This document shows positions 1 through 32,610 of a DNA stretch of 64,000 bases, piece by piece. Each line of letters opens with the position of its first letter. Positions within the stretch are counted from its first letter, which is position 1. The stretch is from the NCBI RefSeq assembly GCF_016026235.1, contig NZ_CP065613.1; one strand, given 5' to 3'. Origin of the DNA: Escherichia coli (GTDB taxonomy: Bacteria; Pseudomonadota; Gammaproteobacteria; Enterobacterales; Enterobacteriaceae). Position numbers and translations under genes: made by a program. The notes beneath the pieces were generated by a model, which saw only the letters and a program-made list of their open reading frames with translations, ran no database searches and was not told where the DNA came from.

Positions 1-881
1 AATAAACCATGGTGATTTCCCGGCAGTACGAGCTTTAGCCGTCACCGATGGTCTGGTTGCTCTTTCCTTCGAGCGTTTAAATCAACGACCTTTAGGCTTA
101 CTTTTATAAAGATAAAAATGCCCTTCATGTTGTGCATTTTTATCTCGACCCAGCAGGCCTTCACCTAAATAAATTGCTGTCGTTGATGCTTTTGTGCCTG
201 AGTCCGACACCTTTTCCCAGCCATTACCAACATTGTAATAATGATTGCCCAGTACCCGGCAAATATAGGTCCAGCCACGGGAGCGGAGCTGTTGGAACCA
301 TCGCCCCTGAAAACCGGCATCTGTAATAACAATGACATCAGTCCCGGGGGAAAAGCACTCAGCAAGCGATTCCAGAAAACGCTCATGTACATCTGCATTC
401 GCTGTCTGTGATGATGGAACGACACAACTCATCAACGGTAAAGAACGCCCGTCACATGCCAGGCTTGCCCGCAAAAGCTGAAAACGAGAGGCATGATAAG
501 CACTCCAGTCAATGAGTATCACAACACGAGACATTCCCCGCGTAATCTTTTGGGTAATTCGCTGAAAAATGGTGGAAACCTCATTTTGCAAATGTCGATT
601 CCCCAACAGTCGATCCACCCGCTTTATTTTGTTTTTAACTGATGCCGTACCGGTTAAATGACGCCCGATACTGGTAAGTGTGAGGGAAGCGCCATTTATT
701 ACAGCATTAGTTGCGTCAATCAGTGATTTTTGACGGTAAAGATGCAAAGGGGCCAGTATGTTGTTAAGGAAATTTTGGCATAATGAACGTGCAGGCATAG
801 TGGTGATCTCCTTGAAATTGTTAGCACAATCAATTAGATCACATCTCACTATGCCTGTCTTGTTTTCTGGGGATTCCTCAG
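1..881 (-). mobile_element. IS10-like (IS4-family) insertion sequence, copy 1, partial (runs off the left edge); outside end CTGAGGAATCCCC at 869-881
   Basis: Encoded protein has IS10-type motifs (KRVDRLLGNRHL, ILIDWS, VITDAGF); terminal sequence resembles the IS10 outside end; bases 7544-8303 are an inverted copy of the same element. Confidence 0.8.
82..798 (-). CDS. IS10-like transposase, 238 codons ending at an in-frame TGA (82-84); the same frame continues transposase-like beyond it
   Basis: ORF track 82..1125 from internal Met (MPARSLCQNF...); identical over 225 aa to the copy at 7627-8303; resemblance to IS10 Tnp is from memory. Confidence 0.75.
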   Translation of the reverse strand: MPARSLCQNFLNNILAPLHLYRQKSLIDATNAVINGASLTLTSIGRHLTGTASVKNKIKRVDRLLGNRHLQNEVSTIFQRITQKITRGMSRVVILIDWSAYHASRFQLLRASLACDGRSLPLMSCVVPSSQTANADVHERFLESLAECFSPGTDVIVITDAGFQGRWFQQLRSRGWTYICRVLGNHYYNVGNGWEKVSDSGTKASTTAIYLGEGLLGRDKNAQHEGHFYLYKSKPKGR

Positions 882-2027
882 GGAAATATCCTGCATTAAC
901 GCAGGCCACGCCCGATACCAGCCAGGGCGTTGCAAAAGCGCCGGAACATGCTGATAACGCTGTAGAATATCCCACAGCAGGCTGCGCTCGACGTTGTGAT
1001 GATAAAGCGCAAACAGATTTTGCGGCTCGCGGTGCTGGCAGGCGCTTATCAGCGTTTGTGCCGCCGCCTGCGCGCCAGTCAGCGCCATATCCATGCCGCG
1101 CACGGAAATTCCGGTATTGACGCAACTGCGCAACGCATCGCCCACCAGCAGCCAGCCGTTACCGGCGTATTGCACCGGCATACTGTGCAAGCCACCTTCT
1201 GGCACCAGATGCGCACCATACTCCAGTGATTCCGTGTTTTTGATAAGCGGGCGCACTGCCGGATGCGCTTTAAAGCGAGTCAGCAGCTCGCTTGCCGGAA
1301 CACGACTTTGCGTAAGGGAAGAGAGCGGGCAAACAATCCCTAACGAGAGCGTTTGTTGATTAGTATAAAGAAATGCGCCGCTGGGTAAGTCATCACAGAT
1401 CCTGCCGCTGAACAGCAACGCTGCGCCTTCGTTATTCTCCAGATGAAAACGTTCTTCAATAGCGGATGTTTCCAGCGACAGCACTTCTTTGATCCCCAAC
1501 GCCATCGCTTCGCCAGCAGGACGAGTCACTAACCCGTGACGTTCAGCCAGGACGCTGTTGGCACCTTCTGCCAGCACCACATAACGGGCGCGGAGAATAT
1601 CGTCACCACAAATGACACCACACACTCTGCCGTTTTCTTCATACAGTGCATCCACCGTCGCACCAGGGATGCATTCGACACCTTCTTTTTCGGCTTCGGC
1701 AACCAGCCACGGATCGAACCGTGCACGTAATACACTCCAGGATTCACCGCCGGGCTGTAAGCTGGAAAACGTCGTTGCGCCATCCGGCGTTAACAGGGAA
1801 AGGCTTTCGTGAGTGATGCGTCGTTCAAGAGGCGCGGTCAGATGAAACTGAGGGAGGAGTTCCGCGAGTGCATGGGTATATAACCGCCCGCCGGAAAGAT
1901 TTTTGCTGCCGGGGATTTCAGCGCGTTCCAGTAACAAAACGGATAAACCCGCTCGCGCGCAGCGTAACGCGCAAGCGGTGCCTGCAATACCGGCACCAAT
2001 AATAATAATGTCGCAGTCGTCTTCCAT
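882..2027 (-). pseudogene. ygcN: ygcN (FixC-like FAD-dependent oxidoreductase), 3' end truncated by the IS insertion at 881
   Basis: N-terminal FAD motif DIIIIGAGIAG; ORF runs into IS sequence about 40 codons short of the ~423 aa I recall for K-12 YgcN; start codon (2027 vs 2057) uncertain. Confidence 0.7.
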
Positions 2028-7160: not shown

Positions 7161-7368
7161 TGCGAGCAGCATTCCTGATTTTAAACGTGAACGCCGCTGG
7201 AAGAATTATCAGGTATAGAATGGCGTCGGGTGCTTGAGGCTGTCTGGCGTTAAGCATTCGCGAGGTTCCAGATGGACAAAAGCCCCAGGCGATATTTCTA
7301 TCAACCTGAGGCTCGCGTTCGAACGTAGCAATTCGAATGTTAGTCTCTTCTTTGCAGGGAGGCAAGAC

Positions 7369-7521
7369 ATGCTGACAAAATATGCCCTTGTGGCAATCAT
7401 AGTGCTGTGTTTTACAGTACTGGGATTCACGCTGATGGTAGGCGACTCGTTGTGTGAGTTGAGTATCAGAGAACGTGGTATGGAGTTTAAGGCTGTTCTC
7501 GCTTACGAATCGAAGAAGTAG
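7369..7521 (+). CDS. hokX: Hok/Gef-family type I toxin (50 aa) with an in-frame upstream Mok-like extension back to 7234; position matches the hokX/sokX locus next to cysH
   Basis: [50 protein letters not shown] carries the Hok motifs SLCE..IR and AYES; SD GGGAGG 7-14 nt upstream; gene name by position, from memory. Confidence 0.7.
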
Positions 7522-7543
7522 CCACCACGCGGGGGTAAAACCC

Positions 7544-8303
7544 CTGAGGAATCCCCAGAAAACAAGACAGGCATAGTGAGATGTGATCTAATTGATTGTG
7601 CTAACAATTTCAAGGAGATCACCACTATGCCTGCACGTTCATTATGCCAAAATTTCCTTAACAATATACTGGCCCCTTTGCATCTTTACCGTCAAAAATC
7701 ACTGATTGACGCAACTAATGCTGTAATAAATGGCGCTTCCCTCACACTTACCAGTATCGGGCGTCATTTAACCGGTACGGCATCAGTTAAAAACAAAATA
7801 AAGCGGGTGGATCGACTGTTGGGGAATCGACATTTGCAAAATGAGGTTTCCACCATTTTTCAGCGAATTACCCAAAAGATTACGCGGGGAATGTCTCGTG
7901 TTGTGATACTCATTGACTGGAGTGCTTATCATGCCTCTCGTTTTCAGCTTTTGCGGGCAAGCCTGGCATGTGACGGGCGTTCTTTACCGTTGATGAGTTG
8001 TGTCGTTCCATCATCACAGACAGCGAATGCAGATGTACATGAGCGTTTTCTGGAATCGCTTGCTGAGTGCTTTTCCCCCGGGACTGATGTCATTGTTATT
8101 ACAGATGCCGGTTTTCAGGGGCGATGGTTCCAACAGCTCCGCTCCCGTGGCTGGACCTATATTTGCCGGGTACTGGGCAATCATTATTACAATGTTGGTA
8201 ATGGCTGGGAAAAGGTGTCGGACTCAGGCACAAAAGCATCAACGACAGCAATTTATTTAGGTGAAGGCCTGCTGGGTCGAGATAAAAATGCACAACATGA
8301 AGG
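7544..8303 (+). mobile_element. IS10-like insertion sequence, copy 2, truncated (outside end plus 5' part of transposase), interrupted by IS4
   Basis: Begins CTGAGGAATCCCC 22 bp after the hok stop; inverted duplicate of 1-881; ends where the IS4 left end begins. Confidence 0.8.
7627..8303 (+). pseudogene. IS10-like transposase truncated after codon 225 by the IS4 insertion (the ORF reads 9 more codons into IS4)
   Basis: Identical to the 82-798 product up to ...DKNAQHEG, then diverges into the IS4 left end. Confidence 0.8.
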
Positions 8304-9729
8304 TAATGCCGATCAGTTAAGGATCAGTTGACCGATCCAGTGGCTGTGTAAGAATCCGGAAACGCTCACTTGTTTCCGGATTTTTTTATGCACATTGGAC
8401 AGGCTCTTGATCTGGTATCCCGTTACGATTCTCTGCGTAACCCACTGACTTCTCTGGGGGATTACCTCGACCCCGAACTCATCTCTCGTTGCCTTGCCGA
8501 ATCAGGTACTGTAACGCTACGCAAGCGCCGTCTTCCCCTCGAAATGATGGTCTGGTGTATTGTTGGCATGGCGCTTGAGCGTAAAGAACCTCTTCACCAG
8601 ATTGTGAATCGCCTGGACATCATGCTGCCGGGCAATCGCCCCTTCGTTGCCCCCAGTGCCGTTATTCAGGCCCGCCAGCGCCTGGGAAGTGAGGCTGTCC
8701 GCCGCGTGTTCACGAAAACAGCGCAGCTCTGGCATAACGCCACGCCGCATCCGCACTGGTGCGGCCTGACCCTGCTGGCCATCGATGGTGTGTTCTGGCG
8801 CACACCGGATACACCAGAGAACGATGCAGCCTTCCCCCGCCAGACACATGCCGGGAACCCGGCGCTCTACCCGCAGGTCAAAATGGTCTGCCAGATGGAA
8901 CTGACCAGCCATCTGCTGACGGCTGCAGCCTTCGGCACGATGAAGAACAGCGAAAATGAGCTTGCTGAGCAACTTATAGAACAAACCGGCGATAACACTC
9001 TGACGTTAATGGATAAAGGTTATTACTCACTGGGACTGTTAAATGCCTGGAGCCTGGCGGGAGAACACCGCCACTGGATGATACCTCTCAGAAAGGGAGC
9101 GCAATATGAAGAGCTCAGAAAACTGGGTAAAGGCGATCATCTGGTGAAGCTGAAAACCAGCCCGCAGGCACGAAAAAAGTGGCCGGGACTGGGAAATGAA
9201 GTGACAGCCCGCCTGCTGACCGTGACGCGCAAAGGAAAAGTCTGCCATCTGCTGACGTCGATGACGGACGCCATGCGCTTCCCCGGAGGAGAAATGGCGG
9301 ATCTGTACAGTCATCGCTGGGAAATCGAACTGGGATACAGGGAGATAAAACAGACGATGCAACTGAGCAGGCTGACGCTGAGAAGTAAAAAGCCGGAGCT
9401 TGTGGAGCAAGAGCTGTGGGGTGTCTTACTGGCTTATAATCTGGTGAGATATCAGATGATTAAAATGGCGGAACATCTGAAAGGTTACTGGCCGAATCAA
9501 CTGAGTTTCTCAGAATCATGCGGAATGGTGATGAGAATGCTGATGACATTGCAGGGCGCTTCACCGGGACGTATACCGGAGCTGATGCGCGATCTTGCAA
9601 GTATGGGACAACTTGTGAAATTACCGACGAGAAGGGGAAGGGCCTTCCCGAGAGTGGTAAAGGAGAGGCCCTGGAAATACCCCACAGCCCCGAAAAAGAG
9701 CCAGTCAGTTGCTTAACTGACTGGCATTA
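8304..9729 (+). mobile_element. IS4, complete 1426-bp element with imperfect terminal inverted repeats (TAATGCCGATCAGTTAAGG ... CTTAACTGACTGGCATTA)
   Basis: Length, terminal repeats and encoded InsG match IS4; flanks (ACAACATGAAGG left, CGACATTTGCCG right) are not a direct repeat. Confidence 0.9.
8388..9716 (+). CDS. insG: IS4 transposase InsG (442 aa)
   Basis: [36 protein letters not shown]... near-identical to E. coli IS4 transposase as remembered. Confidence 0.92.
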
Positions 9730-9764
9730 CGACATTTGCCGGGGTTATGAGCATAACGTAATGC

Positions 9765-31069: not shown

Positions 31070-31253
31070 ATTTCTCTGAGATGTTCGCAAGCGGGCCAGT
31101 CCCCTGAGCCGATATTTCATACCACAAGAATGTGGCGCTCCGCGGTTGGTGAGCATGCTCGGTCCGTCCGAGAAGCCTTAAAACTGCGACGACACATTCA
31201 CCTTGAACCAAGGGTTCAAGGGTTACAGCCTGCGGCGGCATCTCGGAGATTCC
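31070..31253 (+). ncRNA. ssrS: 6S RNA (RNA polymerase sigma-70 regulatory RNA)
   Basis: Begins ATTTCTCTGAGATGTTCGCAAGCGGGCCAGTCCCCTGAGCCG and ends ...GGCGGCATCTCGGAGATTCC, matching E. coli 6S RNA from memory; ends +/- 3 nt. Confidence 0.88.
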
Positions 31254-31876: not shown

Positions 31877-31937
31877 GGGCGATACACCTGCATCGCGCTG
31901 ATTGACATCGTTGATTCTTTAACCTAATTTAGTGAGT

Positions 31938-32082
31938 AAGGGTAAGGGAGGATTGCTCCTCCCCTGTGACTGACTGTTAATAAGCTGGGAAACTTATGAG
32001 TAACAGTACAATCAGTATGATGGCAAGTCGCATCATAACCCTTCTCCTTCAAGCCCTCGCTTCGGTGAGGGCTTTACCGTTA
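31938..32082 (+). ncRNA. sibC: Sib antisense RNA (type I antitoxin), copy 1; ends approximate
   Basis: Promoter TTGACA-17bp-TAATTT at 31902-31930; fully overlaps the ibs ORF on the opposite strand; hairpin AAGCCCTCGCTTCGGTGAGGGCTTT at 32051-32075. Confidence 0.5.
31977..32036 (-). CDS. ibsC: Ibs-family type I toxin, 19 aa (MMRLAIILIVLLLISFPAY)
   Basis: Reverse complement of 31977-32036 translates to an Ibs peptide; SD GGAGAAGGG upstream on the minus strand. Confidence 0.75.
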   Translation of the reverse strand: MMRLAIILIVLLLISFPAY

Positions 32083-32329
32083 CAGCCCCATGCTGCCCAG
32101 TTATCGTAAGCTCTCTTTAAATAACCGCAACGCATTGATCTACCTTTAAATCTTTTCTTCGAGCGCGCTCGAAAAACCCCATGCAAAACAGAGATAATTT
32201 TTGGGAAAAAGGATCTATTACGGCAGTAAACGTGGGCGATGAAGTGGCTATCAAAAAGTTCGGTTCAGGGCGATGCACCCCGCATCGCCCTGATTGACAT
32301 CGTTGATTCTTTGACCTAATTTAGTGAGT

Positions 32330-32474
32330 AAGGGTAAGGGAGGATGACTCCTCCCCTGAGACTGACTGTTAATAAGCTCCGAAACTTATCAGTAACAGTA
32401 CAATCAGTATGATGACAAGTCGCATCATAACCCTTCTCCTTTAAGCCCTCGCTTCGGTGAGGGCTTTACCGTTA
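32330..32474 (+). ncRNA. Sib antisense RNA, copy 2; ends approximate
   Basis: Same promoter and hairpin as copy 1, shifted 392 bp. Confidence 0.5.
32369..32428 (-). CDS. Ibs-family type I toxin, 19 aa (MMRLVIILIVLLLISFGAY), second copy
   Basis: Reverse complement of 32369-32428; differs from copy 1 at two residues. Confidence 0.75.
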   Translation of the reverse strand: MMRLVIILIVLLLISFGAY

Positions 32475-32610
32475 CAGCCCCATGCTGTCCCGCCATCGTA
32501 AATCCCCATTAAATAAACACAACGCATTGATCTGAGTTTGATTTATTTTCTGGAGCAGACTCGCAAAGTAGAATGCGCAACGCGGCAACGGTGTGGAGAA
32601 GGGATAAAAA

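Follow-up and report, generated by a model that had tools for sequence, protein, structure and literature searches.

The ISEc60 Copy at the Left Edge of the Window

Positions 1-881 of the window (the whole stretch of 64,000 nucleotides of Escherichia coli DNA analysed here) belong to an unremarkable copy of ISEc60, a catalogued cut-and-paste insertion sequence of the IS10 subgroup of the IS4 family. The copy sits at an IS-mediated deletion junction in ygcN, in a genome rich in ISEc60, and, judged from the aligned copies, the TGA found at codon 239 of its transposase gene is a nonsense mutation (R239*). The same allele is carried by five copies of the element in one genome, among which a single mutation would have been copied by gene conversion. 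We hold this account, taken as a whole, to be very probably correct. The coordinates of the features are listed in Table 1.

Table 1. Features of the window and sites of the TGA allele in the source genome.
Feature	Position	Strand	Basis or remark
Left 881 bp of ISEc60 (element 1-881 of 1294)	1..881	-	1 mismatch/881 vs L001:1501-2381
Left terminal inverted repeat CTGAGGAATCCCCAGAAAAC	862..881	-	Reverse complement of window sequence
Transposase codons 1-238 (N-terminal region, catalytic Asp97 and Asp160)	85..798	-	ORF translation
TGA stop, codon 239	82..84	-	AGA (Arg) in intact copies
Transposase codons 240-266, untranslated past the stop	1..81	-	Identical to residues 240-266 of the intact protein
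ygcN codons 1-382 of 423	882..2027	-	Alignment to K-12 YgcN (423 aa)
Second ISEc60 copy, element 1-760 only	7544..8303	+	Inverted; 100% identical to 122-881
IS4, 1426 bp	8304..9729	+	Truncates second ISEc60 copy, abuts lysS
TGA copy 1			motA
TGA copy 2			Beside AIDA-type autotransporter gene
TGA copy 3			ygcN (window copy)
TGA copy 4			nupC/yfeA
TGA copy 5			fryB/fryC

In complete E. coli genomes, megablast identified copies that share 99.9% identity with the sequence over 881 bp and are annotated as “IS4-like element ISEc60 family transposase”; the name ISEc60 was taken from this NCBI annotation. The pattern is not due to chance: a single base separates window 1-881 from named ISEc60 copies in other genomes. 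The other 413 bp of the copy fall outside the window, past its left edge; the full 1294-bp form found at the ygcN site was read in GCA_900449985.1 (L005/L023). Complete copies from elsewhere (L001, L002) are also 1294 bp long. The terminal inverted repeats of ISEc60 are imperfect: in full copies the left end CTGAGGAATCCCCAGAAAAC, whose presence bears out the mobile-element end predicted at position 881, agrees with the right end, whose reverse complement is CTGAGGGATCCCCAGAAAAT, in 18 of 20 bases. Mentions of ISEc60 in the literature are incidental only. The element itself is already known.

The intact ISEc60 transposase is encoded by one 396-aa ORF (WP_001111632.1), in which Pfam DDE_Tnp_1 is recognized with an E value of 1.8e-20. 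In the window the minus-strand ORF starts with an ATG at position 798 and has 238 codons. Its product scores 201.8 bits against NCBIfam NF033591 (IS4 family transposase; cut-off 152), and DDE_Tnp_1 spans residues 98-204 only of this truncated protein. The IS4 family is defined by a single transposase ORF without frameshift, a DDE motif and a Y-(2)-R-(3)-E-(6)-K signature that includes the catalytic Glu (PMC2266710). ISEc60 has one intact ORF, residues Asp97, Asp160 and Glu289 that align with the catalytic positions of IS10A, and the YREK signature (YSRRMQIEQNFRDEK, residues 282-296 of the intact protein). The window-edge copy has the same single frame, interrupted by one stop; its YREK motif is 3′ of that stop and outside the window, and it is present in the full copy (L005). 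A length of 1200-1350 bp and 5′-CT ends characterize the IS10 subgroup (Table 1 in De Palmenaer et al. 2008, PMC2266710). The 1294 bp of ISEc60, its ends CTGAGG...CCTCAG and its YREK motif place it in this subgroup. The original prediction had called the element “IS10-like”, a designation that is right at subgroup level but not more closely: the element is ISEc60, and its transposase shares 36% identity with that of IS10A over 372 aligned residues (BLASTP, E 5e-76).

A search for an antisense RNA of the RNA-OUT type, directed against the beginning of the transposase mRNA, gave no Rfam match in window 1-1200 (E<=1), the sole chance hit being to an unrelated family, and a simple scan of window 600-1000 detected neither a sigma-70-like promoter nor a terminator. 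On these two scans an IS10-type antisense RNA was rejected; a diverged one may exist.

The Nonsense Codon in the Transposase Gene

The substitution, A to T when read along the element, affects window position 84 (element position 798), and it is the only difference from L001. The transposase ORF had been predicted to stop at this TGA while its frame continued, which is what is observed: 3′ of the stop the same frame runs to the window edge as FKRSKERATRPSVTAKARTAGKSPWFI. AGA was found at codon 239 in 18 of 18 complete copies from other genomes read at full length. A more distant intact copy (L002, 98.3% identical) has AGA as well. The survey was extended with an 81-bp probe, centred on the TGA, to 5426 complete E. 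coli genomes and the PLSDB plasmids. The TGA allele gave no 100% match among the 92 places detected in E. coli genomes and the 61 places in PLSDB plasmids. The one-base change, together with the lack of TGA in the 153 places surveyed, makes the stop a recent nonsense substitution and not a conserved feature. Reference elements that naturally end at about 238 aa would have overturned the original prediction; the references do not end there, their transposase having 396 aa and AGA at this codon.

With the stop, the transposase loses its catalytic Glu289 and its YREK motif. From this motif loss, and from what is established for the DDE transposases of this family, we infer that the 238-aa product is unable to catalyse transposition and is thus catalytically dead. 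The full copy at the ygcN site has kept both of its ends, and an intact transposase from another copy could in principle still mobilize it in trans; one intact copy is 5.8 kb distant.

The ygcN-ygcU Deletion Junction

The ISEc60 copy in ygcN marks an IS-mediated deletion junction and is not a simple insertion. Alignment to K-12 YgcN shows that 41 codons of the gene are missing, in agreement with the predicted loss of about 40; the ygcN frame enters the IS for 10 codons (852-881) and meets a stop at 849-851. The far side of the element adjoins the interior of ygcU. No target duplication is found at this copy (left flank GGATATTTCC, right flank GAGAATGCCC), and its flanks map 5186 bp apart on K-12, the intervening stretch being deleted. 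The genes or gene segments absent relative to K-12 are the 3′ end of ygcN, ygcO, ygcP, ygcQ, ygcR, ygcS and the 3′ two-thirds of ygcU. The element had been described as inserted in ygcN: it does truncate the gene, but by way of a deletion. Of the two hallmarks expected in the full element, the inverted repeats are present whereas a 9-bp target duplication is not, there being none here and 10 bp, as measured, in thirteen other copies.

Both flanks at the junction resemble typical ISEc60 targets. The deletion probably resulted either from intramolecular transposition or from recombination between two directly oriented ISEc60 copies formerly present. The ygcN-ISEc60 junction is absent from complete E. 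coli genomes. To the left of the window, 2.4 kb past the far end of the element, IS1 interrupts yqcE (L023:13606-14303).

Distribution of the TGA Allele

Genes for exactly this 238-aa product occur at five places in GCA_900449985.1 (Table 1), all reading TGA, the window copy being on contig UGFA01000002.1. One of the five copies has a second change, at position 993, and clean 10-bp target duplications are found at four of them. At least one intact copy, with AGA, is found there too, between ygcE and queE (L023 16983-18276), 5.8 kb outside the window on its left side.

AGA copies with base-identical junctions occupy four of the five sites in GCA_031665325.1 (L013, L014, L017, L031). One of them (L017) is at the same duplication-less ygcN-ygcU junction. 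The flanks of these sites in the source genome and in GCA_031665325.1 have no differences in ~3.9 kb each at nupC/yfeA and fryB/fryC (L013, L014), none in 4.4 kb at the autotransporter locus (L031), and 1 SNP and one 14-bp indel in ~3.9 kb at the ygcN locus (L017). This 14-bp indel lies in ygcW (L005:8248-8261). A duplication-less junction cannot be recreated by independent insertion, from which it follows that the ygcN copy predates the divergence of the strains. Either this copy gained TGA after the divergence or its relatives lost it.

In FDAARGOS_943 the fryC and nupC copies have recombined; the resulting copy reads AGA, and its hybrid flanks are as in L007 on the left and as in L006 on the right. 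The glk-nupC segment of ~7.5 kb, situated between two inverted ISEc60 copies, is inverted in this strain (L009) when compared to the source genome.

Origin of the Five Mutant Copies

Comparison of the assemblies makes gene conversion the probable explanation for the presence of TGA in five copies. The mutation would have arisen once and would then have been carried by non-reciprocal transfer into pre-existing ISEc60 copies, as suggested by the AGA codon read at four of the five sites, behind base-identical junctions, in a near-clonal genome. The explanation has a cost: four conversions would have taken place during a divergence in which the flanks gained hardly any SNPs, which is a high rate. 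The fifth TGA copy, in motA, may have arrived by true transposition of the TGA allele. The motA junction exists in draft assemblies, where the allele at codon 239 is unreadable.

Spread of TGA by transposition, in which a mutant copy would be mobilized by the transposase of an intact one and seed the other four sites, and in which the AGA codons of the sister genome would be secondary or artefactual, is an unlikely cause for the complete set. Clean 10-bp duplications at four of the five TGA copies and the presence of intact copies in the same genome speak for it, as does the absence of the motA and L004 junctions from FDAARGOS_943 and all other complete E. coli genomes. However, the duplication-less junction of the ygcN TGA copy is common, base for base, to the AGA copy of GCA_031665325.1, and three further sites are shared with AGA copies. 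IS10 transposase, moreover, acts preferentially on its own encoding element, a preference that ISEc60 may share.

We also consider it improbable that the pattern is an artefact of assembly or consensus calling, with TGA not being in the DNA at some or all of the five copies or with the AGA codons of the sister genome polished towards the majority allele. The allele is confined to one assembly, and IS copies vary between near-clonal assemblies more than their flanks do; multi-mapped reads, on the other hand, should favour the majority allele and would not be expected to yield five copies of the minority allele with an AGA copy at a distance of 5.8 kb, and copy-specific SNPs are kept in the sister assembly. 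At the dnaJ site, for instance, two other assemblies have different private SNPs, at position 122 in L018/L019 versus position 527 in L027, a disagreement that neither validates nor invalidates either assembly. A mixture of gene conversion, transposition and artefact, or some other cause, is given a comparably low probability.

Possible Roles of the Truncated Product

It is very unlikely that the allele was selected as an inhibitor, the 238-aa N-terminal product binding the element ends and damping transposition of this ~30-copy element. The product retains its N-terminal region together with a portion of the DDE domain and is encoded five times, but its binding, expression and selection are purely hypothetical and the allele is limited to one strain. 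Kwon, Chalmers and Kleckner are said to have described, in 1995, an interdomain linker of IS10 transposase, to which the position of the R239* stop presumably corresponds. The combined proposal, that the R239* product inhibits other copies while gene conversion spreads the allele so that the IS is silenced from within, is likewise very unlikely; if true, it would represent an IS family of ~30 copies self-silencing in real time.

Programmed recoding, in which the TGA would be read through or decoded as selenocysteine or tryptophan to control the transposase level, is almost certainly not involved: the frame past the TGA is intact and the 90 nt starting 6 nt upstream of it fold somewhat better than shuffled sequences (z = -2.3), but every other copy examined has AGA, including the one that is 98.3% identical, TGA occurs in 0 of the other 153 places surveyed, and the UGA is followed here by U, reportedly (Poole, Brown and Tate, in 1995) an efficient termination context in E. 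coli. The fold was rejected as a recoding signal, being modest and also present in AGA copies, whose possession of the same downstream sequence shows that recoding was not what shaped it. Among functional relatives the stop is not conserved, as it would have to be for recoding. Between the nonsense mutation and the programmed read-through offered by the original prediction, the former is retained.

Target Sites and Mobility of ISEc60

Target duplications are 10 bp long in 13 of 13 other copies when the ends are taken as CTGAGG...CCTCAG; the repeats become 9 bp if the invariant C preceding the left end is counted as part of the element. The 13 duplications are loosely symmetric and follow the pattern G(G/R)......(C/T)C, as in GAGCATGCTC and GGGAATTCTC (L001-L031; window 882-891, 7534-7543). 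Many ISEc60 sites occupy the loops of GC-rich hairpins or terminators (for example GCCGGGGATAATTCCCCGGTTTTT), and several copies adjoin type I toxin-antitoxin loci (hok, ibs/sib). The fryC site is used in both orientations in different strains.

Tandem ISEc60 pairs separated by the same 10-bp spacer GGGATTTACC were found in VL46 at fryC (L008:1403-4000) and in GCA_031665585.1 (L012:1918-4515). These two loci are unrelated, belong to two strains, and have their own 10-bp duplications, GAGAATTTCC and GGGATTTTCC. The head-to-tail ISEc60 dimer apparently moves as a single unit.

The Second ISEc60 Copy and Its Neighbourhood

The window has a second, inverted ISEc60 copy that had been predicted to be identical to the first over 760 bp, as is indeed the case (Table 1). 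The inverted repeat formed by the two (122-883 versus 7542-8303) measures 762 nt, of which 760 nt belong to the element and 2 nt are a chance match of the flanks. The second copy ends 38 bp before the TGA site and is therefore uninformative on the allele.

This copy is cut off by an IS4 around which (8304-9729) no target duplication was found, identifying a recombination junction. The ISEc60/IS4/lysS junction is most readily explained by recombination between two copies of IS4. IS4 adjoins lysS in some E. coli strains, and ISEc60 is interrupted by IS4 at about the same point in some enteroinvasive E. coli plasmids. In the present sequence (window 8304-9764) the truncated ISEc60 is linked directly to lysS through IS4, and the gene order is cysJIH followed by lysS-prfB; junction and gene order mark one endpoint of a ~145 kb inversion relative to K-12.

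An intact-looking hokX/sokX type I toxin-antitoxin locus (7228-7521) is present downstream of cysH, before the second ISEc60 copy. Rfam sok matches positions 7228-7384 with 106.7 bits. The Hok-family ORF has 50 aa (called in L023), and window 7234-7521 is covered by a longer ORF of the same frame. In K-12 the cas/CRISPR genes come next; after hokX/sokX in the window they are missing. The only long direct repeat of the window (31887-32567; two copies of 289 nt, 88% identical) is a known pair of Sib antitoxin RNAs and adjoins 6S RNA (31070-31253).

Significance and Comparison with Known Systems

The R239* copy of ISEc60 is ordinary and its five-fold allele is a small but clean curiosity. The finding has little importance in itself, point-inactivated IS and IS-mediated deletions and inversions being routine in Shigella-like and enteroinvasive E. 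coli. For annotation purposes, the five ISEc60 copies of GCA_900449985.1, including that of the window, are transposase pseudogenes, ygcN is truncated, and ygcO to ygcS are deleted. If confirmed by reads, the five-copy allele, with its orthologous intact copies in a near-clonal genome, would cleanly illustrate how gene conversion acts in nature between IS copies at dispersed sites, and the rate and tract length of the process could then be estimated from it.

The window copy has 880 of its 881 bases in common with ISEc60 (WP_001111632.1), as well as the ends, the 1294-bp length and the transposase frame; it differs by TGA in place of AGA at codon 239 and by having no target duplication. The relationship to IS10/IS10A of Tn10 is more remote. 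The DDE and YREK residues align and CTGA-GAATCCCC-type ends are common to both elements, but the sequences are only distantly related, the target repeats of IS10 have 9 bp versus the 10 bp measured for ISEc60, and its target preference is unlike the G(G/R)......(C/T)C of ISEc60, often in a GC-rich hairpin. The insertion sequences of Shigella and enteroinvasive E. coli, with their pseudogenized copies and their concerted evolution, likewise feature many near-identical copies, IS-mediated deletions and inversions, and shared private SNPs. There is no categorical difference between the copies described here and the IS pseudogenes of those bacteria, although the occurrence of the same nonsense allele in five copies is unusually clear.
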